64,000 nucleotides of DNA. Source: Acidobacteriota bacterium. Lineage in GTDB: Bacteria > Actinomycetota > Acidimicrobiia > Spongiisociales > UBA5794. Shown piece after piece: positions 3,772 to 52,454 of the stretch (its first letter is position 1; every line of letters begins with the position of its first letter). The stretch lies in the NCBI GenBank assembly GCA_022562055.1, contig JADFQA010000011.1:11273-75272 (forward strand). Direction: 5' to 3'. A model generated the notes under the pieces. The model searched no databases. It was not told the DNA's origin and saw only the letters and a list, made by a program, of their open reading frames with translations. A program made the translations under genes and the position numbers.

Positions 3772-4310
3772 CAGTCAGCATCACAATCAACGGCCCCGAT
3801 GGTCCGCTCGATGTAGACGTGCCGTCGGTCGGCGGCGAGCCCGTGGTCATACCGTTGGTCAGTGCTCTGATCGAGCGATCAGACGGAACCATTTTCCTTC
3901 AAAAACGCGCCAAACCTGGCGAGAGCGCATTTGGCCGGTGGGAGCTGCCCGGTGGCCGCTGGACGGCGGGGGAGAGCGCCGCGACAGTGGTACGGCGCGA
4001 GGTGAACGAGGAGACAGGTATGACCGTGGTGTCGGTGTTCGGGTCTCACGAGATCTCGGGTGATCTCGGCCGATTCGAGTTGCTTGCACCGGATCTCGTT
4101 ATCACCGGGCATGGTGGCGCATTTCCGCTGCACGTGACCGTCCTCCGCGTAGAGACGCATGGCTCGCCGCGGCCGCTGGAGGGCGAAACGTCGGACCCCA
4201 CTTGGATGTCACGGCGTGAGGTAGCGGCCCTACTAGCTAGGAACCGCAACGCGTTCGTGCCTATCGTGGCAGTAATCCTCGACGCGGTCTTCGCCGAGGA
4301 AGAAAGCTAA
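3768..4310 (+). CDS. NUDIX hydrolase
   Basis: GTG start overlapping stop (GTGA); Nudix box GRWELPGGRWTAGESAATVVRREVNEETG (GX5EX7REUXEEXGU). Confidence 0.8.
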   Translation: MTVSITINGPDGPLDVDVPSVGGEPVVIPLVSALIERSDGTIFLQKRAKPGESAFGRWELPGGRWTAGESAATVVRREVNEETGMTVVSVFGSHEISGDLGRFELLAPDLVITGHGGAFPLHVTVLRVETHGSPRPLEGETSDPTWMSRREVAALLARNRNAFVPIVAVILDAVFAEEES

Positions 4311-10742: not shown

Positions 10743-11507
10743 CTAGTAGGTGCGGATGATGTGGAGGGTCTGCGCGGCCACGTCGTCGCTGGTGCGGAGT
10801 TTGCCTTCGCTGGGCTCCATACGGTGCACCGCAATCCGGCAGAAATCCCCGGCGAGCCCCTTGATGACGTGCGGCGAATCCTTGGGTCCGAAGGTCCACA
10901 GCGCATACTTGGGTCCCATGATCTCGACGCGTATCCCGGCTTGCGGGAACTCCACTCCGGCTTGTTCGTACGCCCACGGCAACATGCGGTGTGCTAGCCA
11001 GGCCACGTGCCGGATGCGTGGAGTGTCGGCCCTCGGGTCTTCCTCGTCCTCTTCGACGAAGATCTTGTCGTCCATCGTGAACTTGATGTCGAGACCATGC
11101 GCCCAGGTCTCAGCAAGCCGCAAAGTCGCGAATGTTTTAGCGTTGACCGCTGCCACCAGCCACGGAATGCGGACGCTCGCATCCATGCGCGAAAGCGGTC
11201 CGACGACGCCAGCGCGACCGTTTCGCCACCATTCGATGATCTCCTGGTACCGCCGGTTCCTACCTCTTTCGACTCCCTCCTGGGTCCATTCGTCATACGG
11301 TACCTGGAGGATTTTGTCGACGACCGCTTTACCGCTTTCGATTACCTGTGCTGCGAACTCCTCGGTGGCAGCCAAGTGGCTGACGGTATCGAGGATCGTC
11401 CATCCTTCACAGGGGGTCTGCCGTTTCCAGTCGCGCTCTTTCACGCCCTGGAGAAATTGGTCGAGCGCTTGCTGTTCGGCGACTAGATCTGAAAGTATTT
11501 CCCGCAT
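10743..11507 (-). CDS. DinB/mycothiol-dependent maleylpyruvate isomerase N-terminal-domain family protein (TIGR03083/03084-like)
   Basis: 254 aa; WTILDTVSHLAATEEF motif typical of this actinobacterial family. Confidence 0.55.
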   Translation of the reverse strand: MREILSDLVAEQQALDQFLQGVKERDWKRQTPCEGWTILDTVSHLAATEEFAAQVIESGKAVVDKILQVPYDEWTQEGVERGRNRRYQEIIEWWRNGRAGVVGPLSRMDASVRIPWLVAAVNAKTFATLRLAETWAHGLDIKFTMDDKIFVEEDEEDPRADTPRIRHVAWLAHRMLPWAYEQAGVEFPQAGIRVEIMGPKYALWTFGPKDSPHVIKGLAGDFCRIAVHRMEPSEGKLRTSDDVAAQTLHIIRTY

Positions 11508-20526: not shown

Positions 20527-21415
20527 TCTTTGCTCCGTTCGACCTGCGCATCGGCCAATGTGAAATCGGTTGACCCGACCAATAGCGGGTGTCATCCGCG
20601 CAAGCGGTTTGCATTGATCTGAAGATAGCGTGCAAAATGCTTTCGCGAAAGATCAGCCGCATTTGAGGATCAACCGCGAGCGGAGGGAGCTCGGACTTCT
20701 CGGTCGATGGCAGGCGCTTCTTCAGGAATTTGGTTTGCTGCAACGAGGAGGCTCATCGCCGATGGCGGTGTGGTCTGCGGCGTTTCGCGCTACCCAGAAG
20801 GACTGTGGGCGACCGTGAGCCTTGGGGCATTTCTCACCTGTATGACGTCGCCCCGGCGTCGGGGCATGCGTGGCTGCTCAAGCGTCCGGTCGGTGTGCGT
20901 CGATTCTTGGCGCGGTCGGTGAGACTTGGTTGAGACACTTCGACGACATGACGGGCAGCGACCCTCCAACGTAGATCGCCATCAACTTGGGCGCGTCGCT
21001 GTTGCTCACTAGGCGGTGCCCGTGTGACGCCCTCGTCTCGAATCAATGTCCTTGTCTCGTCGGGCGACGGCAAGCTCGGTTTTGAGTTCGCGGATACGCC
21101 TTCTTCAAGCCGCCGGCCTGGCTGGTGACGGACCTTCGCCTTGACTGGTGTCGATCGTTTTGCGCCTTCACCAGTTGTAGATCATCTGCTCGCTGCTCCG
21201 GAGGGGTGTCTCAAATACGTGTCGTCTGTGAACAGGTTCGTGCGGTGATCAGCCGATGAGGCGTTGACCGGCCTCTCCGGCACCAACTAGCGGCGCAACG
21301 CCGCAGCGTTTCACAACTCACGATTCGGATTATTCGTACCTTGCACACAGCGCGGTCTCACACATCGCGAACGCAAACGTCAATCCCAAGAATCGATCGA
21401 CGTTGTTCTAGGTGT

Positions 21416-23201: not shown

Positions 23202-24829
23202 CAGTAAAGGTTGGATTTCTCGGGGGCCTCGGCGAGATCGGTCGAAATTGTGCCGTGATCGAGGTCGATGGAAAGCTTGCGATGATCGACTGCGGTCTGA
23301 TGTTCCCAGAGGCCGAAATGCTGGGCGTGGACCTTGTCTTGCCTGACTTTTCTTGGGTACTCGACCGGGCAGAAGACGTCGAGTGTGTCGTGCTGACGCA
23401 TGGCCACGAGGACCATGTTGGTTCGCTAGCGTATTTCCTGCGCGAGGTGAACGTGCCCGTGTATGGGACTCGTATGGCTGTGAACTTCGCAAAGTCACGT
23501 GTGGAGGAACTCGGCGTTGAGCCCGACCTTCGCGCTCTCGAAACCAATGAGTGGGTCGAGCACGGTCCGTTTAAGTTCACGCTGGTTCGGGTTGCACATT
23601 CGACCCCCCAGGCGGCAGGTGTCGTGTTCGACACACCTCAAGGGTTGATCGTGCACTCGGGTGACTTCAAGCTCGACCCGACGCCAATCGACAACAACCC
23701 GACTGATCTGCAGACATTCGCCGGTTTCGGGCGGCAAGGCGTCAGGCTGTTGCTTGCCGACTCCACGAATGCAGAGGTGCCCGGTGTGGTCCCGTCCGAG
23801 CGTACCGTTGGCCCTCACCTGACCGCCCTGACCGCGGAGGCGGAGGGGCGGGTGATCATTGCGTGTTTTGCAAGCCATGTCCACCGTGTGCAACAGGCGA
23901 TCCATGCTGTGACCGCTGCGGGGCGCAAGTTTGCGTTTCTAGGTAGGTCGATGATCCGCATGTCAGCGATTGCCCGTGATCTCGGGCTTCTCGATTTCAA
24001 TGACGAGGATGTCCTTGAGATGGATGATCTTCTGGAGCTACCGGACTACGAGACCGCGGTGATATGTACCGGTTCGCAGGGTGAGCCGTTTGCTGCGCTT
24101 TCGTTGATGGCTGCGGGTCAGCATCGTCACATCAAACTCGATGACAACGACACGGTGATCATTTCAGCGACGCCGATTCCTGGGAACGAGTCGAAAGTCT
24201 CGCGGGTGATCAACAATCTCACCAGGAGGGGTGTGACGGTTCACCACGGGCGGAACGCAACCGTGCACGTCAGTGGACACGCTGCGCAGGAGGAACTCAA
24301 GACCTTTCTGAACATCATCAAACCGCAGTCGTTCATTCCGGTGCACGGCGAGTATCGCCACCTTGATGCACATGCCAAGATCGCTCGCCTGATGGGTGTC
24401 CCAGACGTCCACATCCTCGAAGATGGCGACATGATCATTTTGGAGGATGACGGCGAAGCCAGAATCGAGCGGGGGGCGTTTCCAGCGGGCTACGTGTACT
24501 TGGATGGTCACGGGATCGGAGACGTTGATGGTGTGCTGCGAGACCGCAGACATCTTGCCGATGACGGGGTCGTGATCGTGACCCTTGGTGTTGATATGCA
24601 GAGCGGTGCAATCATCTTTGGCCCCGACGTGGATAGCCACGGGCTCACAGACGAGCCCGAGGAGATCCACAAGATGGTGCGCGAGCGTGTCACGTCGGGC
24701 ATTACGTCTCTCGACACACCGCTCGATCACGACACGGTGCGGTCCAAGGTTCGCTCAATGACCGGCCGCGCCGTCAAATCTCATCTGGCCCGCCGCCCAG
24801 TGGTGTTCCCAGTAATCATCGAGGTTTAA
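23198..24829 (+). CDS. rnj: ribonuclease J (metallo-beta-lactamase/beta-CASP)
   Basis: ATGA overlap with dapA; HGHEDHVGSLAYFL motif, 543 aa. Confidence 0.9.
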   Translation: MTVKVGFLGGLGEIGRNCAVIEVDGKLAMIDCGLMFPEAEMLGVDLVLPDFSWVLDRAEDVECVVLTHGHEDHVGSLAYFLREVNVPVYGTRMAVNFAKSRVEELGVEPDLRALETNEWVEHGPFKFTLVRVAHSTPQAAGVVFDTPQGLIVHSGDFKLDPTPIDNNPTDLQTFAGFGRQGVRLLLADSTNAEVPGVVPSERTVGPHLTALTAEAEGRVIIACFASHVHRVQQAIHAVTAAGRKFAFLGRSMIRMSAIARDLGLLDFNDEDVLEMDDLLELPDYETAVICTGSQGEPFAALSLMAAGQHRHIKLDDNDTVIISATPIPGNESKVSRVINNLTRRGVTVHHGRNATVHVSGHAAQEELKTFLNIIKPQSFIPVHGEYRHLDAHAKIARLMGVPDVHILEDGDMIILEDDGEARIERGAFPAGYVYLDGHGIGDVDGVLRDRRHLADDGVVIVTLGVDMQSGAIIFGPDVDSHGLTDEPEEIHKMVRERVTSGITSLDTPLDHDTVRSKVRSMTGRAVKSHLARRPVVFPVIIEV

Positions 24830-24859
24830 TAGTTCTGGCCCACGGTGGTGGGCCGCCCG

Positions 24860-25075
24860 CTAGGTGGCAGCCAGCCGCTCGAGAAGTTCCTGATTTCGTT
24901 CCATTGCGGCCGCGAGCTGTTTCTGGAACGCAGGGTCGTTGCGCCGACTCTCGATGCGATCGGCGATCGCTCTTCTGATCTCCTCAGTCACAGTTGTGTC
25001 CTCAACCTGAGCGATGGCCTCGAGGTCGGCCGCGACGTCGGTGGCGAGCCGCAGTGTCAATGCCTTGGTGTTCAT
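24860..25075 (-). CDS. ribbon-helix-helix (CopG/Arc-type) protein, antitoxin-like
   Basis: 71 aa, MNTKALTLRLATDVAADLEAIAQVEDTTVTEEIRRAI... beta-strand-helix-helix pattern. Confidence 0.6.
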   Translation of the reverse strand: MNTKALTLRLATDVAADLEAIAQVEDTTVTEEIRRAIADRIESRRNDPAFQKQLAAAMERNQELLERLAAT

Positions 25076-25213
25076 GAGCGTCTCCTCGTAGTTGGTCGGC
25101 GCCGGCGTAACGTTTTGTCAGCGCGTTGCGTTACGTTGCGTTGGATCTTCCAACATCTTATGTCTAAATATCCAGATGTCAAGATATCAACCAATAGTGG
25201 TGTAAACGCGTGT

Positions 25214-25602
25214 ATGTTTGAAATTCCCATCGACGAATACCTTGCAATCGCATCCGTCGTACTCAACGTTGATGTTGCCTCGATCTTGAGGACTACCGAC
25301 CTTGGTCTTGCAGACTCGGCTCTACATGCGCCGTTTGCTGGATTCGGCGACATGAGTTCTACGCGTCAGATAGCGCGAAAGCCGGTGTTCTCCTGGTCAG
25401 ACTCATCAAGAACCATCCACTTGTCGATGGCAACAAACGTACGGCCTTGCTAACGACAATGCGCTTTCTTGAACTGGCAGGCTACTCGTGGAGCGTCGGC
25501 CCGACCGATGCGTTTGAAAAGTTGCTTGCTATTGCTGCGGGCGAAATGCGTGAAAATGCCGCTACTCGCTGGATGTCCGAGACAGCCGCTCGAATCCCCT
25601 GA
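25214..25602 (+). pseudogene. doc: Doc (Fic-family death-on-curing) toxin, frameshifted near 25352
   Basis: N-frame MFEIPIDEYLAIASVVLNV...LHAPFAGFGD then -1 shift into ...EFYASDSAKAGVLLVRLIKNHPLVDGNKRTALLTTMRFLELAGYSW... (Doc motif HxFx(D/E)GNKR); 389 nt, not a multiple of 3. Confidence 0.7.
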
Positions 25603-25752
25603 TCGATGACCGTTGGTCATCCGGACCTCTATTGATCCGCGCTTGGATCGGCCACTCATTGAGTGGTCAAGCGGGGTGGGCGCTACAGTTGTATCAGACT
25701 CGACGTTTGGCATTGCCAGTCGTGAGCACACTGACGGAATCTGGAGGGGTCC

Positions 25753-26172
25753 ATGGGAGCGGAACTACGAAACCCGAGAAGATGGGTTTCGTCCAAGGGC
25801 TGGTCATTCCTCGTCCTCGGGGCCGCGGTCGTCGCTGTCGTGGCGCTTTCGCTATCGCTATTGCCTAGCGGTGCAGCGGAGACGATCGTCCAGGATTGTG
25901 ATCTGGCGGATTTCGTAGAGAACGATCTGTCTGAAGCATCCGGACGCTTGCCGTCGGGCGAGCTGGTGCGGGTTCTCACGATCGCAGCTGCCAGCGAAAC
26001 GGATGCCATCTCGGTGCGTAAGGCTGTCTTCAGCGAATGCGCAGACTCAGGTGCCTCGATCGTTAGCGATGGAGTTCTGACGATGTCGTGGCGCACGGCG
26101 TGTGGCTCAGGGCTGCTGATGCGCTCCGGTGAAGACAGCATCGTTGTCATTGTCGAGGCCCCGACCTGCTGA
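25753..26172 (+). CDS. small secreted/exported protein, function unknown
   Basis: 139 aa with N-terminal signal peptide WSFLVLGAAVVAVVALSLSLLPSGAAE; the long antisense ORF over it is Arg-rich and rejected. Confidence 0.5.
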   Translation: MGAELRNPRRWVSSKGWSFLVLGAAVVAVVALSLSLLPSGAAETIVQDCDLADFVENDLSEASGRLPSGELVRVLTIAAASETDAISVRKAVFSECADSGASIVSDGVLTMSWRTACGSGLLMRSGEDSIVVIVEAPTC

Positions 26173-26385
26173 ACGGTCGCTGCGCTTTCGCCTCCTTCGT
26201 CGGTGACGCTGCGCTCCATCGTGTCGGCTCCGCCGACTTGAATGGGTAGGTCGTTGGGCCGATGGAACCGCTGTGGTGGCCAAGGTTCTTGGTTCAGCTT
26301 TGCTGAACGGTCGCTGCGCTTTCGCCTCCTTCGTCGGTGACGCTGCGCTCCATCGTGTCGGCTCCGCCGACTTGAATGGGTAGGT
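26167..26385. repeat. ~85-bp direct repeat (two copies, 134-bp period) duplicating the 3' end/stop codon of the upstream gene
   Basis: tgctgaacggtcgctgcgctttcgcctccttcgtcggtgacgctgcgctccatcgtgtcggctccgccgacttgaatgggtaggt at 26167..26251 and 26301..26385; each copy contains hairpin GTCGGC-tcc-GCCGAC. Confidence 0.85.
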
Positions 26386-26391
26386 AGGTCG

Positions 26392-26420
26392 TTTGCACAG
26401 CGCGGGGGTTGGGGTATCGT
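26392..26420 (+). promoter_or_regulatory. candidate ftsK promoter (TTTGCA-17 nt-TATCGT) giving a leaderless or near-leaderless transcript
   Basis: -35-like 26392..26397, -10 TANNNT 26415..26420, ATG at 26430. Confidence 0.35.
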
Positions 26421-26429
26421 TATTGGCCA

Positions 26430-28706
26430 ATGGCTCAAACAACTAAGAAACGTCGGGGTCAAGGGCGGAAAACGACGAGACGGTCGGGCTCCAAGCGATC
26501 GACCGCATCAAGAAAAACATCACAAAAGACCGGATTGCTTCCAGCGCTGCGAAGCATGAAAGTGCGGCTCCGAGATCGTCTCGGTCGTCAGACCGACGAT
26601 GTCTGGGGCGTCGTTCTCCTTGTCGGAGCGATCCTTCTGGGCCTGTCGTTTTTCGACAAGGCGGGTCCCCTTGGCAACTGGTCACGCGACGGTCTCGAAC
26701 TTCTATTTGGCCTGTGGGCGGTGTTCGTACCGCTGATTCTCGGGTACATCGGTTTTGCAATGGTCGGTTCGATACCGCGCAAAGATTACGCCAGGGTGAC
26801 GATCGGGTTGCTCGTCGTGTTTGTGTCTTCAATGGCCCTGTTCCATCTGTTGACGGGTGCGGTAGCGCTAGAAGGTTCGCTCGAAGAGGTAGTTGAGCGG
26901 GGCGGTGTTCTCGGATCTTTGATTGCGTTTCCGCTCGACAGACTGATTGGTTTCACGGGGGCAGCCGTTGTGCTGTTGGTCAGTGTCGCGATGGGTGCCT
27001 TGGTGGTTTCGCGAGCGACGATACGAGACGTGTGGCTCACCGTCTTCGGGAGTTTCCGACGACTGCGAGGTTGGCTCGGTATGCAAGCCGCCGCGACTGT
27101 AACTGCTCCCGCCTCGGCCCCACGCCAGGCTGACATCATTGTTGACAATGCAGGCCCGAAGTCGAAGGCTCCGTCCAAACCGAAGATCGCCAAGACGTCG
27201 CCACAGAATACGAAACCTCCTGAGGCACGCAGACCCGCGATTCCTGCACCATCGGGGGACGGCTACACCCTACCGCCGCTCGAATTGCTTGATCGTGGCG
27301 AAGGCGCCCACCAACCTCGCAAAATGTTGGAACGCACCGCCCAGGACCTTGAGTCTGCGCTGCTTGAGCACGGCGTGGACGCCCGTTTAACAAGGATCGT
27401 GCCGGGTCCGACCGTGACCCGCTACGAGATCGAGCTTGCCCCCGGGGTCAAGGTTTCGAAAATCACGAGCCTCAGCCAGGACATCGCCTATGCGTTGGCG
27501 TCGGTCGACGTTCGTATTCTTGCGCCGATCCCGGGGAGAAGTGCGGTCGGTGTCGAGGTACCAAACCGAAAGCGTGAACTTGTCACCCTGGGCGACATCC
27601 TCACCGCCGCGCATGCTTCGGGGGACACTGATCCGCTCAGGATCGGACTAGGCAAAGACATTTCCGGCAATGCCCGAATGTTGAAGCTCGACGACCTGCC
27701 ACATGTGCTGATTGCGGGTGCAACCGGCGCCGGCAAGTCTTCGTGTATCAATGCCCTTGTCGTGTCGATCCTGATGCGTGCGAAGCCCGACGAGGTTCGG
27801 ATGATCATGGTCGACCCGAAGCGGGTCGAACTCGGCCAGTACAACGACATACCCCACCTGCTCACCAGAGTCATCACAAACCCGAAAAAGGCAGCGGACG
27901 CCCTCGAATGGGCAGTGAGTGAGATGGATCGTCGTTACGACCTGCTTGCGGATGCCGGGGTGCGCGATATCACCAGCTACCGCACCAAGTGGGAGGCCGG
28001 TGGCCTCGACAAGGACGCCTTCGACAAGTTCCCCCGCATCATCATCATCGTCGATGAGTTGAATGACCTGATGATGGTCGCCGGGCGGGTCGTCGAGGAT
28101 TCCATTGTCCGCATTGCGCAGATGGCGCGGGCAATCGGGATACACCTTGTGCTCGCAACTCAGCGTCCCTCGGTGAACGTTATCACCGGGGTCATCAAGG
28201 CAAACATCCCGTCGAGGCTTGCGTTCTCGGTGTCATCGCAGACCGATTCACGGGTTATTCTCGATACGGTCGGTGCTGAAAAACTTATCGGTCTGGGGGA
28301 TATGCTGGTCGTCACCGCGCGCGAACCAAAGCCAGAGCGGATCCAAGGCGCCTTTGTGTCTGAAGGTGAAGTGCGAGCGGTGGTGGAGTACGTGAAAGCC
28401 CAGTGCCAGGCGCAGTACGACGAGAAGGCCGTGTTTGAGGTTGCTCAGAAGAAGGCGTCGCTCAAAGAAGAGTACGACGGCGAGGATCCGACGCTGATGC
28501 GCCAAGCAATCGAGCTGATCGTCCGTAGTCAGCTTGGGTCGACATCGATGCTGCAGCGGAAACTACGGGTCGGGTTTGCACGTGCCGGACGCATCATGGA
28601 CATCCTCGAAGAGCGCGGAATCGTCGGTCCCAGCGAAGGCTCCAAGGCCCGCGAAGTGCTGGTTACCGAGGAACAACTCGACGACCTGTTTGCGGAGTCG
28701 TCCTAA
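26430..28706 (+). CDS. ftsK: DNA translocase FtsK
   Basis: basic N-terminus, 4 TM helices, Pro-rich linker, FtsK/SpoIIIE motor (AGATGAGKSS Walker A; IIVDELNDLMM Walker B), gamma domain; ORF-track start is TTG 26409, ATG 26430 preferred. Confidence 0.9.
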   Translation: MAQTTKKRRGQGRKTTRRSGSKRSTASRKTSQKTGLLPALRSMKVRLRDRLGRQTDDVWGVVLLVGAILLGLSFFDKAGPLGNWSRDGLELLFGLWAVFVPLILGYIGFAMVGSIPRKDYARVTIGLLVVFVSSMALFHLLTGAVALEGSLEEVVERGGVLGSLIAFPLDRLIGFTGAAVVLLVSVAMGALVVSRATIRDVWLTVFGSFRRLRGWLGMQAAATVTAPASAPRQADIIVDNAGPKSKAPSKPKIAKTSPQNTKPPEARRPAIPAPSGDGYTLPPLELLDRGEGAHQPRKMLERTAQDLESALLEHGVDARLTRIVPGPTVTRYEIELAPGVKVSKITSLSQDIAYALASVDVRILAPIPGRSAVGVEVPNRKRELVTLGDILTAAHASGDTDPLRIGLGKDISGNARMLKLDDLPHVLIAGATGAGKSSCINALVVSILMRAKPDEVRMIMVDPKRVELGQYNDIPHLLTRVITNPKKAADALEWAVSEMDRRYDLLADAGVRDITSYRTKWEAGGLDKDAFDKFPRIIIIVDELNDLMMVAGRVVEDSIVRIAQMARAIGIHLVLATQRPSVNVITGVIKANIPSRLAFSVSSQTDSRVILDTVGAEKLIGLGDMLVVTAREPKPERIQGAFVSEGEVRAVVEYVKAQCQAQYDEKAVFEVAQKKASLKEEYDGEDPTLMRQAIELIVRSQLGSTSMLQRKLRVGFARAGRIMDILEERGIVGPSEGSKAREVLVTEEQLDDLFAESS

Positions 28707-28775
28707 CCGCTGATCGGCGACACCGGGTCTCGGCCCGTCGCAGTACCCTGTGCACAATGGAGATCTCGGCCCGAT

Positions 28776-30036
28776 TTGATGCGCTGTCTAAGGGTGCAGC
28801 TACCTCGTTCCGGTTCTCTGGTCTTATCGAAACACTGGTTGCCTACACCACCGCTGATTGCGTTCGGCGTGTTTGATGAACGAACCGATGTGGAACCCAT
28901 CACCAGCGGTCCGGTTGGCGCAACGTACTCGATATCGCCATGGCGGTCGCAGATCACCGAGCGCGAACACCGAGCCGGCGTCGATGCAATACGCGCCGCG
29001 ATCCGGGCAGGCGACACCTACCAAGTGAACTACACGTTTCAACTTGAGGCTGACTTTGATGGTGATCCGCAAGCGTTCTACCGCGATCTCATCGCGACCT
29101 AACGCGGCCGCCACGGAGCGCTGATCGACTGCGGGCGGTTTCAGATTCTGTCCGCGTCCCCTGAACAGTTCTTCTCGCTGCGGGGGCGGCAGCTGCACAT
29201 GACACCGATGAAGGGCACGTTGCCGCGGGGCCGGTGGCTTTCGGAGGACCGCGAACTGTCCGTCCAACTGGCTAAGTCACCGAAAGACCGCGCTGAGAAC
29301 TTGATGATTGTTGATCTCATCCGCAACGACATCGGAAGAATCGCCGAATACGGGTCAGTCAAAGTCGACGACCTGTTTGCGGTCGAGCCATGCGAGACCG
29401 TGTGGCAGATGACGTCGAAGGTGCGAGCGATACTGCGGGTCGGTGGGATGGATGGGTCGTGACGACACTGGCGAGTTGCGGGCCGAATTCAACGTTGCGA
29501 TTCGTACCGTCACGATCGACACACAGCGGGGCACCGCGACCTACGGCACCGGCGGTGCTATCACCTGGGAATCAGATCCGAGCAGCGAGTACGCCGAAAC
29601 CCGGTGGAAAGCTCGCCTGCTCACCACCCGGCGGCCCGACATGCGCCTCATCGAAACCATGCGATGGGATCCCGAAGGCGGATTCATGTTCCTCAATGAA
29701 CATCTCGACCGCATCGTCGAAAGCGGCATCTTTTTCGGGTTCGACGTTAGGCGAGGGGCAATTGTCGAGGCGCTGGAGCTAGTCGCGTCGTCTGCAAGCG
29801 CTCCACACATCACGCGGGTAGTGGTTGATCGGGCCGGTAGCGTCGAAGTCGAACAGCGCGAGCAGAGCCTCGCTTGTTTTGCGTCCGATCTGGTTGCGGA
29901 TGCGAAGGCTGTTCACCTCGCGCTGAGCCCGACCCCAATCGATGTTGACGACGTGTTCTGGTATCACAAGACCACCCAGCGCAGCGGATATGACCGACGG
30001 CTCGAGGCGGTTGATGGCGAAGAGCCATCTACATGA
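28776..30036 (+). pseudogene. pabB: aminodeoxychorismate synthase component I fused to aminodeoxychorismate lyase (pabB-pabC), multiply disrupted
   Basis: PabB blocks GDTYQVNYTFQ, PMKGTLPRG, ENLMIVDLIRNDIGR, NVAIRT, GGAITWESDPSSEY, then class-IV aminotransferase N-domain; in-frame TAA at 29100..29102, +1 frameshift/deletion at ~29443..29462, N-terminal ~150-200 aa and PabC C-terminal half missing. Confidence 0.75.
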
Positions 30037-30064
30037 ATAGCTAGCTGCCTGTCCCCGCGAGGGT

Positions 30065-30850
30065 TTAAGGGCGGACGGAGTCGAGGAAGTCGAAGATGTC
30101 GACGCCGTCTGAGAGTGACCGCATGATGTGCCCTTCGCCGTCTCGGATGTCGAGTGTCACTGTGCCTCCGAGCGATTCCAGCGTATCGGCCGTCTCCCTC
30201 ATGGGTCCGATCCAGCCGGGGTCCTCTCCACCGACAAACATCGCGACAGGCAGTTTTGCGAGATCGGCAAGGCTGCCCGCATCGGTGGGACCGGCTGGGA
30301 AGCCCGGGAACACCAGCACCGAGGCGAAACGTTCCGGCTCGAGGGTGGCGATACGAAAGGTGCTGCGCCCACCGTTGGACACACCTGCGATGTGGTACCG
30401 GCCGCCCTCAAGCTTGATCCAGGCAAGCTGGTCGAGGAATTCGGGGATGTACTGCTCTGAACCTTGGAAAAAGAGGACACCGTCTGGCGCGGCCGGTGTT
30501 ATCACGACCCACCCGCGTTGCATCGCCTGTTCGGCGTAGGTCGATTCTGCAAGCGAAGTCATTAGCCCGACACTCTGATCCCCTGGTGGCAACGCCAGCA
30601 GAACGGGGTACTGCTTGTCCGAGTCGAAGTCCTTGGGGAGTATCAGTCCGTAGGTGATCTCGGTCCCGTCTGACATCGTGGTCCTACGAATGTCGACCGT
30701 TCCGGGTCTGAGGTCGTCGGGCGCAACAGGCGACGACTGTGGGGGTTCTGATGAGGTCGCCACTGCCGGTGCGCCCGACACCTGCGAGGAACTAGACGCG
30801 CCACCGCAAGCCGCAAGCCCGATCGCGAAAAGAAAAAGCACACGTCTCAT
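30065..30850 (-). CDS. lipoprotein alpha/beta hydrolase (esterase, GxSxG = GVSNGG)
   Basis: start at MRRVLFLFAIGLAACGG lipobox; Ser/Pro-rich linker; nucleophile elbow HIAGVSNGG. Confidence 0.65.
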   Translation of the reverse strand: MRRVLFLFAIGLAACGGASSSSQVSGAPAVATSSEPPQSSPVAPDDLRPGTVDIRRTTMSDGTEITYGLILPKDFDSDKQYPVLLALPPGDQSVGLMTSLAESTYAEQAMQRGWVVITPAAPDGVLFFQGSEQYIPEFLDQLAWIKLEGGRYHIAGVSNGGRSTFRIATLEPERFASVLVFPGFPAGPTDAGSLADLAKLPVAMFVGGEDPGWIGPMRETADTLESLGGTVTLDIRDGEGHIMRSLSDGVDIFDFLDSVRP

Positions 30851-30876
30851 AACCCAACAGTAGGACGTCACGATCA

Positions 30877-31653
30877 TTACTCGTCCTCGGCACACACCGT
30901 GTGATCTGGCGGTTCAACCTGGACAGTGGTGTCGACTATCCCGAACCTGGTCTCGAGTAGGTCGGCTGCTTGGTCGAGCACGTCGTGGTGGTCGCCGCCG
31001 GCGGCCACCGTGATGGGCGCTGAAGCTACGTTTTCTCCAGTACTTACTGTCCACACATGCAACTTGTGGATACCGGTGACCGATTCGATCTCCGACAGGG
31101 ACGACCTGACTTCGTCGATGTCGATACTCTCGGGGGCGATTTGGAGAAGAATCCGCATTGCTTTCTTGCCGAGGCGCCACGCCCGCGGGACGATGAAGAC
31201 AGCGATCGCGGCACCGATGAGCGGGTCGATGATCTGCCACCCAGTGACCCATATGACGCCGGCCGCAAAGATCACGCCGATGGACCCGATCATGTCTGCC
31301 CATACTTCCAGGTAGGCGCCCTCGACGTTGATCGACTCATTGCAGCTTGCGCGCAGCAGCCGCATAACGATGATGTTCACGACAAGACCGACGATTGCAA
31401 TAACAAGCATGATGTCCGACTCGACGTCGACTGGTGTGCCGAGGCGGATGATGGCGATCGCCATTGCAAGGCCGATGGTGTCGGTGACCATGTGTCCGGC
31501 GTCAGAGAGAAGCGCAAAAGATTGGGTGACAATGCCGCCCACGACTTCGGCGACCATGAACACCGAGATGAGGAAAAACGAAATCGTGAGGAGGCGGAGA
31601 TGCGCGCTTCCCGACCCTTTCGGCACATGGTTGTGGTCTGCTCCTATTCCCAA
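30877..31653 (-). CDS. cation diffusion facilitator family transporter (CzcD-like)
   Basis: 258 aa, 6 TM, SFALLSDAGHMVTD signature, C-terminal cytoplasmic domain. Confidence 0.85.
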   Translation of the reverse strand: MGIGADHNHVPKGSGSAHLRLLTISFFLISVFMVAEVVGGIVTQSFALLSDAGHMVTDTIGLAMAIAIIRLGTPVDVESDIMLVIAIVGLVVNIIVMRLLRASCNESINVEGAYLEVWADMIGSIGVIFAAGVIWVTGWQIIDPLIGAAIAVFIVPRAWRLGKKAMRILLQIAPESIDIDEVRSSLSEIESVTGIHKLHVWTVSTGENVASAPITVAAGGDHHDVLDQAADLLETRFGIVDTTVQVEPPDHTVCAEDE

Positions 31654-31734
31654 AACTTAGCATAAAATGGGAAAACGCCGAAGCCCGGTGTGTCGAGTTG
31701 GTGTTCGCTGAGATGTGACTACGATCGCGGCGTC

Positions 31735-32631
31735 ATGGGCGACTACCACGTACACCTACATCAACACGGCCCGTACTCCGGCACCGGGCCTCGGCCCGGC
31801 GAATACCCTGACGGGCTTATCGAGTCGTACATCGAGGCAGCCGCTGCCCGTGGCGTTACCGAGGTCGGATTTACAGAGCATCTTTACCGTTGTGTGGAGT
31901 CGGCGGATGCCCTCGGTCGGTTTTGGGAGCGCGAGCCGCGCACCGACCTCGCCGATCAGGCTGCTGTGTATGTCGCGCAGGAGCGCAAACTTTCGTTGGA
32001 ACGTTACGTGGAGGTGGTCGAAGCCGCCAAAGACCAAGGCCTCGCCGTGAAACTCGGCCTCGAGATCGACTTTTTCCCCGACACGATGGCTGCGGTCCTT
32101 GATCTGATAGCGGACTATCCGTGGGACTTTCTTGTCGGCTCGGTGCATTGGATTGGCGGCTGGGCGTTCGACCAGGACGCCGTGTCATACGAATTTGACC
32201 GACGTGGTGTCTCCACAGCGTACGAAGAATATTTCGGATTGATCACCCAGCTTGCGGCGTCTGGCTCGGTGGATGTTCTTGCCCACATCGACCTCGTCAA
32301 GAAATTCGGGCATGTGTACCCAGGTTCCTCGGCCGAGCTGCACGAACCGGTTGTGAGCGCCGCGGCCGCCTCCGGTACTGCTGTGGAGGTATCGTCGGCC
32401 GGACTCTACAAACCGGTCAACGAGATGTATCCAGAGCGCGGATTGCTCGCAATGTTCAACACCGCCGGGGTCGCGATCACGCTTGCGTCAGATGCTCACG
32501 TGTTCAGCGAGTGCGGGCGTGACAACGACGAAGTTGTCCGCTACTCCAGGGCTGCCGGTTACTCCGAGTACGTCGTGTTCGACAAACGTGAGGCAAACTC
32601 AGTGCCTCTGCGGACTTTGGCGCAGACATGA
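31735..32631 (+). CDS. PHP-family histidinol-phosphatase-like hydrolase (HisJ/HisK family)
   Basis: MGDYHVHLHQHGPYSG N-terminal metal-binding HxH of PHP domain; 298 aa. Confidence 0.65.
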   Translation: MGDYHVHLHQHGPYSGTGPRPGEYPDGLIESYIEAAAARGVTEVGFTEHLYRCVESADALGRFWEREPRTDLADQAAVYVAQERKLSLERYVEVVEAAKDQGLAVKLGLEIDFFPDTMAAVLDLIADYPWDFLVGSVHWIGGWAFDQDAVSYEFDRRGVSTAYEEYFGLITQLAASGSVDVLAHIDLVKKFGHVYPGSSAELHEPVVSAAAASGTAVEVSSAGLYKPVNEMYPERGLLAMFNTAGVAITLASDAHVFSECGRDNDEVVRYSRAAGYSEYVVFDKREANSVPLRTLAQT

Positions 32632-36584: not shown

Positions 36585-37985
36585 ATGAGTTACGCCCAGT
36601 TAGCAGCAACGGACAAACCCCGTAATACGGTGGGTGCTGGCACCGTGACGGGTTCGAGTGGTTCGGATTTCGAACCAATATTCTTTGACACACCCCACAT
36701 GGACGCCCGGGCAATACCCGTGGGGCTTGATGACATAGAACCCGGTGCCGTCCTCGCGTTCATCCTCGACGGTATCAATATCGGGGAACTGTGTGGTTAT
36801 GACCGGGTCATAGTGTTACGAGCCCACCAACGCTTGGTATCTCACTACCAAGCACAGCTTTACACAGACATGGCTGGCATCACGACAGTATTCGAGAACC
36901 CCACCGACACCCCAAACCACGTCGCCGACCATGTTTCTGGCGAGCCTTCTGGGGGTCCCAGTTTTGATGCTGTCAGGGATGCCGGTGTTGAGATCGGTTG
37001 TGCGTTACATCTCACCCGCCGCGCCGCCGACACCGAGCTTGGTGTAGCGCTTGAGCTCACTGGTCGGCTCCCGAGGCTCCATGAGATGCTCACCCTGGGC
37101 CTGGTAGATGTGCGGCGGGTAAAATGTATGTCTGCTGCCACTATCCACCTCGACACTGACACCGCCCGGGGTGTGATTGATAGTGTTGCTAACGAGGCCC
37201 CCGGGTTAACCACAGGGCAGCTCAGAGCCCGCATCGCGAAACTCTGCATCAACGTAAACCCTGATGATGCTGCCCGACGCTTTCAAACAGCACACGGGGA
37301 CCGTCGGGTTGTGATGGAAGCAACCACTGAGGGCACAGCCAACCTGATGGGTCTTGCTCTGGAACCAGGCCGGGTAGTGGAGATCACCAACCGGATCAAC
37401 AACTTGGCTAAAAGTCTCAGACGGGGCGGTGAGACACGCACCATGGACCAGTTACGAGCCGACGTCTACGTCGACCTACTGACAGGCACCAACTATCACG
37501 CTGCGGGTCGGGGTGTGATCCATATCACCACCGATCTTCAAACCCTCACCCGCCTCAACGATCATCCTGGTGACCTGGGTGGCTACGGGCCAGTAATAGC
37601 TGACATTACCCGCCAAATCGTCGCCCAAAACGCTGACACCAAAACTGAGTGGCGCTGGTCCATTACCGATCCTGACACGGGTGAACTCACCCACACCGGA
37701 ACCACGACCCGCCGCCCCGGTGCCGCGATACGCCGCGCAGTTGAGATGCGCCACACGACCTGTGTGTTCCCCGGATGCCGCATGCCATCCGTCGAATCCG
37801 ATTTGGATCACCGTGACCCAGTCACCCACGGCGGACCCACCACGCCGCCTAACCTGGCACCGTTATGCAGGTTCCACCACACCCAAAAACACCTCGACTG
37901 GCGCCTCGAAAAACTCGACAACGGCGACTACCAGTGGACCAGCCCCCTCGGCCACACCTACACCACTCGCCGAGCACCACCCTAA
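36585..37985 (+). CDS. DUF222 + HNH endonuclease protein (REP13E12-family repeat protein)
   Basis: 466 aa; C-terminal HNH HRDPVTHGGPTTPPNLAPLCRFHHTQKH with CxxC...CxxH; architecture of mycobacterial 13E12 repeat proteins. Confidence 0.8.
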   Translation: MSYAQLAATDKPRNTVGAGTVTGSSGSDFEPIFFDTPHMDARAIPVGLDDIEPGAVLAFILDGINIGELCGYDRVIVLRAHQRLVSHYQAQLYTDMAGITTVFENPTDTPNHVADHVSGEPSGGPSFDAVRDAGVEIGCALHLTRRAADTELGVALELTGRLPRLHEMLTLGLVDVRRVKCMSAATIHLDTDTARGVIDSVANEAPGLTTGQLRARIAKLCINVNPDDAARRFQTAHGDRRVVMEATTEGTANLMGLALEPGRVVEITNRINNLAKSLRRGGETRTMDQLRADVYVDLLTGTNYHAAGRGVIHITTDLQTLTRLNDHPGDLGGYGPVIADITRQIVAQNADTKTEWRWSITDPDTGELTHTGTTTRRPGAAIRRAVEMRHTTCVFPGCRMPSVESDLDHRDPVTHGGPTTPPNLAPLCRFHHTQKHLDWRLEKLDNGDYQWTSPLGHTYTTRRAPP

Positions 37986-41632: not shown

Positions 41633-42685
41633 GTGGATTCAGAACAGAGTAAGAATCTTGAAATGGCGATGTCGCAGATCGAACGGCAGTTCGGCAAGGG
41701 CGCCATCATGAAGTTGAGCGACAGCGCAGTGCGCAACGTCAGGGCGATTCCGACGGGTGCGTTAGCGCTCGACCTTGCCCTTGGCATAGGTGGTGTTCCT
41801 CGCGGCCGGATTGTCGAGATCTACGGTCCAGAGGCATCTGGCAAGACAACCCTTGCACTCCATATCGTCGCCGAAGCGCAGCGCAACGGGGGAGTTGCTG
41901 CATTCATCGACGTCGAGCATGCACTTGACCCTGTGTACGCCAAAGCGTTGGGTGTTGATGTGGACGAGCTTCTGATAGCCCAACCGGACACCGGCGAGCA
42001 GGCCCTCGAAATCGTCGACATGTTGGTTCGATCGGGTGCGCTCGATGTGGTCGTCATCGACTCCGTTGCTGCACTTGTACCTCGCGCCGAACTTGAGGGA
42101 GACATGGGCGATGTCCATGTCGGGCTCCAAGCTCGGCTGATGTCTCAGGCTCTACGCAAGCTTGCCGGCTCGATCAACCGATCTGATACAACGGTGATCT
42201 TCATCAACCAGCTTCGTGAAAAGATCGGTGTGATGTTCGGCTCACCTGAGATCACGCCGGGTGGTCGTGCGCTGAAGTTCTACGCAAGTGTTCGTCTAGA
42301 CGTTCGGCGTATCGAGGCGATCAAACAAGGCACCGAAAACGTTGGCAACCGTGTCCGGGTCAAGGTCGCCAAGAACAAGGTCGCACCACCGTTCCGTCTC
42401 GCTGAGTTCGACATCATGTTTGGTGAAGGAATCTCACGAGAAGGCAGCCTGCTAGACGTTGCGGTCGAAGAGGGAATCGTCCGTAAATCTGGTGCCTGGT
42501 ACACGTACGAAGGTGACCAGCTTGGCCAAGGACGTGAGAAGGCGAAACAGTTCCTTCGCGACACACCAGAGCTTGCAATGCAGCTTCAGGACCAGGTCCT
42601 GCGTGCAGTCGGTCTCATAGAATCGGACGATATCTCGTCAGACGCTTCTGCTGTCGAGGCGGACTCCAACGTGGCGGCCGAGTAG
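41633..42685 (+). CDS. recA: recombinase RecA (no intein)
   Basis: GTG start with GAAGGGAG RBS; [13 protein letters not shown] Walker A, IDSVAAL, 350 aa. Confidence 0.95.
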
Positions 42686-52010: not shown

Positions 52011-52083
52011 TGCGGACGTAGCTCAGTTGGTAGAGCGCAACCTTGCCAAGGTTGAGGTCGCCGGTTCGAACCCGGTCGTCCGC
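52011..52083 (+). tRNA. tRNA-Gly (GCC)
   Basis: cloverleaf folded by hand: acceptor GCGGACG/CGUCCGC, anticodon loop UUGCCAA, T-loop GGUUCGAAC; no encoded CCA. Confidence 0.9.
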
Positions 52084-52090
52084 TCGACGA

Positions 52091-52116
52091 ATGGATGGCT
52101 GGTGTCATCCGTTTTT
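52091..52116 (+). terminator. hairpin GGATGgctggtgtCATCC + TTTTTT between tRNA-Gly and tRNA-Cys
   Basis: read directly. Confidence 0.5.
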
Positions 52117-52187
52117 TGGCGACATGGCCGAGTGGCTAGGCAAGGGTCTGCAAAACCCTGTACCCGGGTTCGAATCCCGGTGTCGCC
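52117..52187 (+). tRNA. tRNA-Cys (GCA)
   Basis: acceptor GGCGACA/UGUCGCC, anticodon loop CUGCAAA, T-loop GGUUCGAAUCC. Confidence 0.85.
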
Positions 52188-52211
52188 TCCGCCGGTTATC
52201 ATTCCGGTAAG

Positions 52212-52283
52212 CGGGCGCTTAGCTCAGCGGGAGAGCGCTGCCCTGACACGGTAGAGGTCACTGGTTCGATCCCAGTAGTGCCC
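52212..52283 (+). tRNA. tRNA-Val (GAC)
   Basis: acceptor GGGCGCU/AGUGCCC, anticodon loop CUGACAC, T-loop GGUUCGAUCC. Confidence 0.9.
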
Positions 52284-52454
52284 ACAAACGGTCAGTTCGA
52301 TGGCTTTCGAGTTCTATTCGATCTCGAAACCCATTCACGTTCCGGGTTGTGTTTTCCAGTTTCTGCCTCGCTTATCGGTGAAGCCATGCGGGCGTCCGAC
52401 GCGGTGCTTTGCTTCCATATATTGTTTGTGTAGCTTGAGTGGAAGAGGCAAACA

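Follow-up and report, generated by a model that had tools for sequence, protein, structure and literature searches.

A decayed pabB-pabC fusion gene directly downstream of ftsK in an uncultured Acidimicrobiia-like actinobacterium

Remnant of a pabB-pabC gene behind ftsK

We analyzed a 64-kb stretch of DNA from a metagenome-assembled genome (MAG; contig JADFQA010000011.1), hereafter the window, and report on the sequence immediately behind its ftsK gene. ftsK terminates with a TAA at positions 28704-28706, and coding sequence resembling PabB and PabC follows directly downstream, distributed over three reading frames. The PabB and PabC activities account for the two steps that lead from chorismate to p-aminobenzoate (pABA). 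Window 28757-30044 (plus strand) is very likely a dead pabB-pabC fusion, in which component I of 4-amino-4-deoxychorismate (ADC) synthase had been joined to ADC lyase. A first-pass annotation, made from the sequence alone, had proposed such a fusion with four independent lesions, and this is borne out by alignment to intact, ftsK-adjacent orthologs of 595 aa and by recurrence of the lesions in other assemblies (see below).

A database search returns a single close homolog, P0001 (595 aa). The next best matches, at most 45% identical, are all PF00425+PF01063 fusions of ∼580-612 aa, and several fusion homologs carry the name para-aminobenzoate synthetase/4-amino-4-deoxychorismate lyase. P0001 is encoded on metagenome contig L001, which has the gene order of the window (ftsK, pabBC, a 261-aa hypothetical protein, CDF transporter, PHP phosphatase, thrC). 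A second intact 595-aa allele lies on contig L023, again in this order. pabBC is also found directly 3' of ftsK in a distant relative (41% identity; L039/L040, GCA_002450985.1; arrangement dapB...trx-dapA-rnj-ftsK-pabBC), and because the adjacency extends to this genome, the position after ftsK is ancestral. Among the species-representative genomes, a set outside which the source genome and its close kin fall, a scan with the intact ortholog as query yielded only relatives of at most 44% identity, and the JGI metagenomes scanned gave no match above 47% identity and no intermediate alleles.

Global alignment of the remnant with L001:2423-4210 yields four collinear blocks separated by three gaps (140, 128, and 232 bp), with 98 mismatches in 1286 aligned bases (92.4% DNA identity). 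The locus now measures 1288 bp, compared with 1788 bp, or 595 codons, in the ancestral gene. When P0001 is used as a tblastn query, matches are found at 28757-28864, 28842-29438, 29437-30024, and 30015-30041, in three frames. The features of the locus are as follows (all on the plus strand).

26556-28706, plus strand: ftsK, 716 aa in the gene calls of related contigs; conserved upstream neighbor, which fixes the syntenic position
28757-30044, plus strand: the whole pabB-pabC pseudogene (global alignment to L001:2423-4210)
28757-28850, plus strand: retained start ATG and codons 1-31 (MEISARFDALSKGAATSFRFSGLIETLVAYT...; translation and alignment)
28850/28851 (28850-28855), plus strand: junction of deletion 1; 140 bp gone, ortholog residues ∼32-78, about 47 codons (alignment)
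29100-29102, plus strand: in-frame nonsense codon TAA for CAA (Gln162 of the intact ortholog; alignment)
29211-29213, plus strand: retained AAG of the PMKGT motif, equivalent to Lys-274 (K274) of E. coli PabB (phmmer of P0001 against PDB 1K0E)
29430/29431, plus strand: junction of deletion 2; 128 bp gone, ortholog residues 272-314 (TVREYVHLTDVFTALFPSGSITGAPKASTMKHIAALEKSARGV; alignment)
29968-29970, plus strand: retained AAG of the WYHKTT motif (sequence and translation)
30012/30013, plus strand: junction of deletion 3; 232 bp gone, ortholog residues ∼509-586, the C-terminal half of the lyase domain (alignment)
30013-30023, plus strand: sole surviving copy of the direct repeat GATGGCGAAGA (comparison with L001)
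30015-30044, plus strand: ancestral last nine codons WRRAIYMNS and TAG stop, out of frame with everything upstream (tblastn match of residues 587-595, alignment)

The three frames can be followed through the remnant. Frame 2 opens with the ATG at 28757, reads MEISARFDALSKGAATSFRFSGLIETLVAYTTAD..., and runs into a TGA (28874-28876) after 39 codons. Frame 0 reads ...PPLIAFGVFDER...YQVNYTFQLEADFDGDPQAFYRDLIAT-TAA-RGRHGALIDCGRFQILSASPEQFF...TPMKGTLPRG...VWQMTSKVRAILR, and frame 1 continues with YCGSVGWMGRDD...GGAITWESDPSSEYAETRWKA... and then with the N-domain of a class-IV aminotransferase as far as WYHKTTQRSGYDRRLEAVDGEE. The longest product from the authentic ATG is a 39-residue peptide, and none of the downstream open reading frames (ORFs) of the remnant contains a complete domain. 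Judged from its sequence, the locus is unable to yield ADC synthase or ADC lyase. The gene had originally been taken to start at 28776, with the N-terminal ∼150-200 aa lost; its true ATG lies at 28757, codons 1-31 stand in a third frame, and ∼47 codons are missing from a PabB type that has a short N-terminal region.

The ancestral 595-codon gene directly downstream of ftsK gained a CAA to TAA change and three internal deletions, all of which alter the frame because 140, 128, and 232 bp are not multiples of three. The deletions would have arisen at short direct repeats, through replication slippage or illegitimate recombination. The TAA at 29100-29102 lies inside continuous PabB sequence, exactly where it had first been reported, and since ftsK ends in TAA, this triplet does act as a stop in this genome. 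Deletion 3 is flanked by an 11-bp perfect direct repeat, GATGGCGAAGA, with L001 copies at 3947-3957 and 4179-4189, and from this repeat an origin of the 232-bp deletion by slippage or illegitimate recombination appears clear. The same origin is plausible for the 140-bp deletion 1, which has CCGC microhomology at its ends (4 bp exact; 8/9 imperfect). Deletion 2 shows no exact microhomology. It takes out the FPSGSITGAPK...RGV block (equivalent to E. coli PabB ∼347-389, FPGGSITGAPK...), so that the active-site block FPxGSxTGAPK...RGxYxG is absent from the remnant, save for a YCGS tail in another frame.

Some particulars of the first-pass annotation need to be amended here. A frameshift with deletion had been placed near 29443-29462; the frame change and the loss of ∼43 codons hold, and the exact junction is 29430/29431 with 128 bp missing. 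The deleted segment had been thought to carry the catalytic lysine. The catalytic role of K274 in E. coli PabB is established, and its codon equivalent at 29211-29213 is kept, the block that is lost being FPSGSITGAPK...RGV. A truncation of the lyase shortly after its HKTT motif had also been described: HKTT is indeed present and lyase sequence is lost ∼14 codons later, but by an internal 232-bp deletion between the GATGGCGAAGA copies that leaves the last nine codons and the TAG in place. The WYHKTT lysine is conserved across all fusion homologs inspected and is presumably the pyridoxal phosphate-binding (Schiff-base) residue of the class-IV aminotransferase/ADC lyase domain, as family knowledge would have it.

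Domain searches agree with this picture. Recognizable ADC synthase blocks and a class-IV aminotransferase N-domain, already noted in the first reading, correspond to Pfam Chorismate_bind (PF00425; profile positions 3-163 and then 209-257, with the jump across deletion 2) and to the N-terminal half of Aminotran_4 (PF01063; profile 2-125 of 223, 29.2 bits compared with a cut-off of 28.5). Even when stitched together, the remnant scores 248.3 bits with the NCBIfam pabB model TIGR00553, below the family cut-off of 328.4 bits, and so falls short of a complete PabB. The intact P0001 passes with 358.1 bits and has both domains complete (PF00425 at 116-374; PF01063 at 387-590, profile 2-220, 108 bits). 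The remnant lacks the complete two-domain class-IV fold of a PabC, and it has no uninterrupted reading frame from start to stop. Two marks of a pseudogene are present, an intact syntenic ortholog in close relatives and reproducible disabling lesions. Alignment against intact PabB-PabC fusions, which had been suggested as a check, was run on orthologs of the L001/L023 type and confirms the pseudogene.

GenBank annotates 28836-30036 as three coding sequences (MCH7668616.1, MCH7668617.1, and MCH7668618.1; 87, 113, and 194 aa), all of them entered as ‘chorismate-binding protein’ and none with a pseudogene flag.

Could the gene still function, either split and recoded, with read-through of the stop and programmed frameshifts, or in the form of fragments that are translated separately and then assemble? 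The three consecutive GenBank entries MCH7668616-18 and the survival of both lysines (PMKGT, HKTT) speak for it. Recoding cannot, however, bring back the 500 bp that are missing; neither the FPxGSxTGAPK...RGxY block nor half of the lyase fold is there any longer, the stitched product stays below the TIGR00553 cut-off, and TAA serves as a normal stop in ftsK. We consider residual function of this kind very improbable and treat the locus as a pseudogene.

Recurrence of the lesions and age of the inactivation

The ThrC protein of the window is present on seven other contigs of public assemblies, six of which were retrieved (five from ENA assemblies and one from a Logan assembly). The samples named are BioSamples SAMN16252660, SAMN16252661, and SAMN18835368 and run SRR12886643, to which two further ENA analyses are added. 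The six contigs align to the window with 99.7-99.9% identity and with zero gap openings over the stretch covered. The TAA and deletions 2 and 3 are identical in all six; deletion 1 is shared by L016-L019 and L021, which are all five contigs that reach the site, with L020 starting at 28871 and thus covering only the TAA and deletions 2 and 3. Scattered single-nucleotide polymorphisms (SNPs) distinguish the contigs, which are therefore separate reconstructions of one population. The BioSample label SAMN18835368 is attached both to the broken L021 and to the intact L001 (assemblies S001 and S002), and the broken and intact lineages therefore occur in the same material. The broken allele is common to a natural population sampled in several metagenomes.

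These data bear on the concern that the stop and the frameshifts are sequencing errors, or collapses of mixed strains, in a single MAG. The source is indeed a metagenome-assembled genome, intact and broken lineages appear under one BioSample label, and one MAG contig, L022, is visibly mosaic. Against this, five contigs have all four lesions at identical positions and the sixth (L020) has the three it covers; the contigs differ by SNPs, and the four that name samples (three BioSamples and one run) name distinct ones; and deletions of 128-232 bp with flanking repeats of at most 11 bp are not assembler collapses. An artefact thus has next to no probability in our estimation. The possibility, envisaged at first, that resequencing would remove the stop and the frameshift is thereby excluded, the lesions being identical, with zero gaps, in the contigs of other assemblies.

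L022 (GCA_022573205.1, contig JACZUK010000063.1) belongs to a second GenBank MAG and carries the stop and deletions 2 and 3 without deletion 1; its first fragment, of 161 aa, ends at the same TAA. L022 is identical to the window along the locus except for two patches (∼28718-28920 and ∼30613-31013) that match the intact lineages, and the first patch restores the 140-bp segment absent from the window. We considered L022 as an ancestral intermediate that would order the lesions and rejected it: the deletion-free N-terminal patch is of the intact type at every diagnostic site, and L022 is for this reason no ancestor but a recombinant that arose in nature or a chimera assembled from co-occurring strains. 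Identity between the window and L001 is likewise patchy when computed in 200-bp windows over 26339-32000, ranging from 100% (27518-27717 and 31413-31480) to 86-91% elsewhere, with 86% the lowest value, and identity to L023 falls to 78.5% at 29645-29844. The pattern suggests homologous recombination among the lineages.

To date the inactivation we compared substitution ratios. The ratio of nonsynonymous to synonymous divergence (dN/dS) between the remnant and L001, taken in the ancestral frame, is 0.15; the neighboring genes give 0.07 (ftsK), 0.08 (PHP), 0.14 (hypothetical), 0.14 (thrC), and 0.27 (CDF gene). For changes specific to the window, the corresponding pN/pS is 0.19, compared with 0.14 and 0.22 on the two intact branches, with L023 as a third sequence that is only partly valid as an outgroup, divergence along the locus being mosaic. 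The ratios therefore indicate that purifying selection acted on the gene through almost the entire period after the lineages separated, and they suggest an inactivation that is recent compared with the separation from the intact lineages. Within the broken lineage we count 9 segregating sites in the 1288 bp of the remnant, 8/2151 in ftsK, 1/897 in PHP, 2/1398 in thrC, and 3/1836 in dxs, that is ∼7 per kb in the remnant compared with ∼1-4 per kb in these four genes. In the ancestral frame three of the nine polymorphisms are nonsynonymous and six synonymous, and four of the nine are shared with the intact lineage. A very recent inactivation fits dN/dS, pN/pS, and the raised SNP density, which hold no positive evidence of neutrality.

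Neighboring genes and the host

The relic lies in a gene order that is a conserved actinobacterial arrangement. It is preceded by genes for an M16 peptidase, dapB, an FMN-dependent dehydrogenase, a thioredoxin-TPR protein, dapA, RNase J, and ftsK, and followed by genes for the hypothetical protein, the CDF transporter, PHP, thrC, dxs, and a DUF222-HNH protein, behind which come rimO, cinA, thpR, recA, RNase Y, miaB, dapF, lexA, nrdR, and a DivIVA protein. Features of the window beyond the relic are listed here.

10743-11507, minus strand: gene for a mycothiol-type MDMPI_N protein, further upstream
30877-31653, minus strand: CDF (cation efflux) transporter gene (comparison with L001 and L023)
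36585-37985, plus strand: DUF222 and HNH endonuclease gene, between dxs and rimO
41633-42685: recA
52012-52284, plus strand: three clustered tRNA genes; Rfam matches nothing else in the window

The Rfam scan of the window found no riboswitch or RNA near the relic. The CDF transporter gene has probably decayed too, as far as its sequence tells. Its start ATG is mutated to ATA (31645-31647), and an in-frame loss of 132 bp at 31452/31453, flanked by the imperfect repeats CGGATGATGGC and CGGATGGCGGC, costs the protein 44 residues, a predicted transmembrane helix (RRLEVVAALANALMVFGVAAYVLWTAI) among them. The CDF proteins of L001 and L023 are intact (300 aa), and the deletion is common to the whole broken lineage.

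The nearest relatives of the window's RecA protein bear the names Actinobacteria/Actinomycetota and Acidimicrobiia (88-92% identity), and one RecA at 92% identity is labeled ‘hydrothermal vent metagenome’. GenBank labels the source MAGs ‘Acidobacteria bacterium’. This label is probably wrong, judging from the RecA relatives, the MDMPI_N, DUF222-HNH, and DivIVA content, and the gene order.

DUF222 and HNH genes are often tied to mobile elements in actinobacteria. In L039, thrC is directly followed by rimO, and for this reason dxs and the HNH gene of the window may be an insertion. Relics of the genes that the distant relative has between dapB and thrC (TerC, Usp, a 2-oxoacid dehydrogenase operon, and others) were sought in the window, and none was found save a paralogous dxs match. 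Just upstream of ftsK lies an 85-nt perfect direct repeat (26167-26251 and 26301-26385, spacing 134 nt), of which L016 and L017 hold a single copy; either 134 bp are duplicated in the window or the repeat was collapsed in the other assemblies. Tandem Repeats Finder reported nothing on 24800-26600. Two long stretches of the window are without a convincing gene, 24830-26408 (1.6 kb; only ORFs of 71 and 139 aa, both without a Pfam match) and 20596-21415 (0.8 kb).

Supply of pABA and comparison with known systems

For this locus, loss of pABA synthesis follows. A tblastn search with P0001 found no second pabB/pabC copy in the 64-kb window, that is, no further chorismate-binding or class-IV aminotransferase match, and among the genes of the window we saw no folate-pathway gene, no pabA, and no folate transporter family. 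The organism, an uncultured Acidimicrobiia-like actinobacterium, would rely on pABA or folate released by its neighbors. We lean toward the view that pABA synthesis has ceased in the lineage, which would now need pABA or folate supplied by the community.

The pseudogene could also be real and yet of no consequence, if a second pabB/pabC, a non-canonical route to pABA, or folate import had made this copy redundant. Comparative genomics finds the pABA branch hard to call owing to paralogs and fusions, and considers that organisms without pab genes may have an alternative pathway (PMC1971073); the remnant moreover shows little excess of nonsynonymous change. The 64-kb window contains neither a second copy nor a folate gene nearby, however, and the sister lineages and the relative of 41% identity keep the gene intact at this place, which argues that it is normally needed. 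Redundancy is thus a possibility to which we give less credence than to dependence on the community.

Several observations weigh against a simple history in which the gene died and pABA synthesis went with it. The analysis covers 64 kb, and a second pabB/pabC, another pABA route, or a folate transporter may lie elsewhere in the genome. L022 combines the stop and deletions 2 and 3 with an intact-lineage patch that lacks deletion 1. The substitution ratios show no clear relaxation, that of the remnant being no higher than on the intact branches, and strict long-term neutrality predicts more nonsynonymous change than the observed 3:6, a ratio that rests on small numbers and in part on shared alleles.

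Broken and intact lineages may coexist in one habitat and still exchange DNA, which would make them a natural pABA producer/auxotroph pair within one uncultured Acidimicrobiia species complex. We offer this only tentatively and think it doubtful. Coexistence is read from the shared BioSample label and from several other samples, DNA exchange from the patchy divergence and the mosaic contig. If true, the pair would represent an early-stage ‘Black Queen’ loss, and the deletion in the adjacent CDF transporter gene would hint that a burst of microhomology-mediated streamlining is still under way.

The locus is a well-documented, ordinary case of recent gene decay and opens neither a new mechanism nor a new question. 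Its value is that of a datable loss of a vitamin-precursor gene in an uncultured population of free-living actinobacteria, close relatives of which have kept the gene, and such cases back models of metabolic dependency in microbial communities. In metabolic reconstructions, the public annotation would wrongly credit this MAG with pABA synthesis.

Fusion of PabAa (PabB) to ADC lyase is a common arrangement (PMC1971073), and fused PabBC proteins are reported for Lactococcus lactis and Streptococcus pyogenes as well as Helicobacter pylori in the part of PMC5535693 that cites Wegkamp 2007. Like these, the ancestral gene encoded an N-terminal chorismate-binding synthase followed by a lyase of the class-IV aminotransferase fold in one polypeptide; unlike them, the copy in the window lacks 500 bp and is broken by a stop codon and by three shifts of frame. 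In this clade, the intact relatives are uncharacterized metagenomic sequences, ∼40-45% identical to other fusions in the databases. Residues 106-374 of P0001 are clearly homologous to E. coli PabB (PDB 1K0E/1K0G) and to further enzymes that use chorismate, namely TrpE and the isochorismate and salicylate synthases (E = 1e-53), and Lys-274 (K274) in the PIKGT motif of E. coli PabB aligns with PMKGT of P0001. The PabB type described here differs from the E. coli enzyme by a shorter N-terminal region and by the fused lyase domain.

The Hydrogenophaga strains S1/PBC, free-living pABA auxotrophs without pabB, are cross-fed by partner organisms (PMC5535693), and intracellular bacteria without any pab genes are known; for organisms that have no pab genes, possible alternative routes have been discussed (PMC1971073). 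The outcome proposed here resembles that of these auxotrophs, in that ADC synthase would be missing and pABA would come from co-occurring producers. In those cases, however, the gene is missing altogether and culture work demonstrated the auxotrophy, whereas in our case the gene is caught in mid-decay and auxotrophy is deduced from it.

Mycobacterium leprae is a classical example of bacterial pseudogene decay with deletional bias. Unlike in M. leprae, the rest of the 64-kb window appears densely coding and intact, and it gives no sign of genome-wide decay. What the locus shares with the M. leprae pattern is the presence of several independent disabling lesions within a single gene, deletions between short direct repeats, and a neighboring gene that has probably decayed as well.

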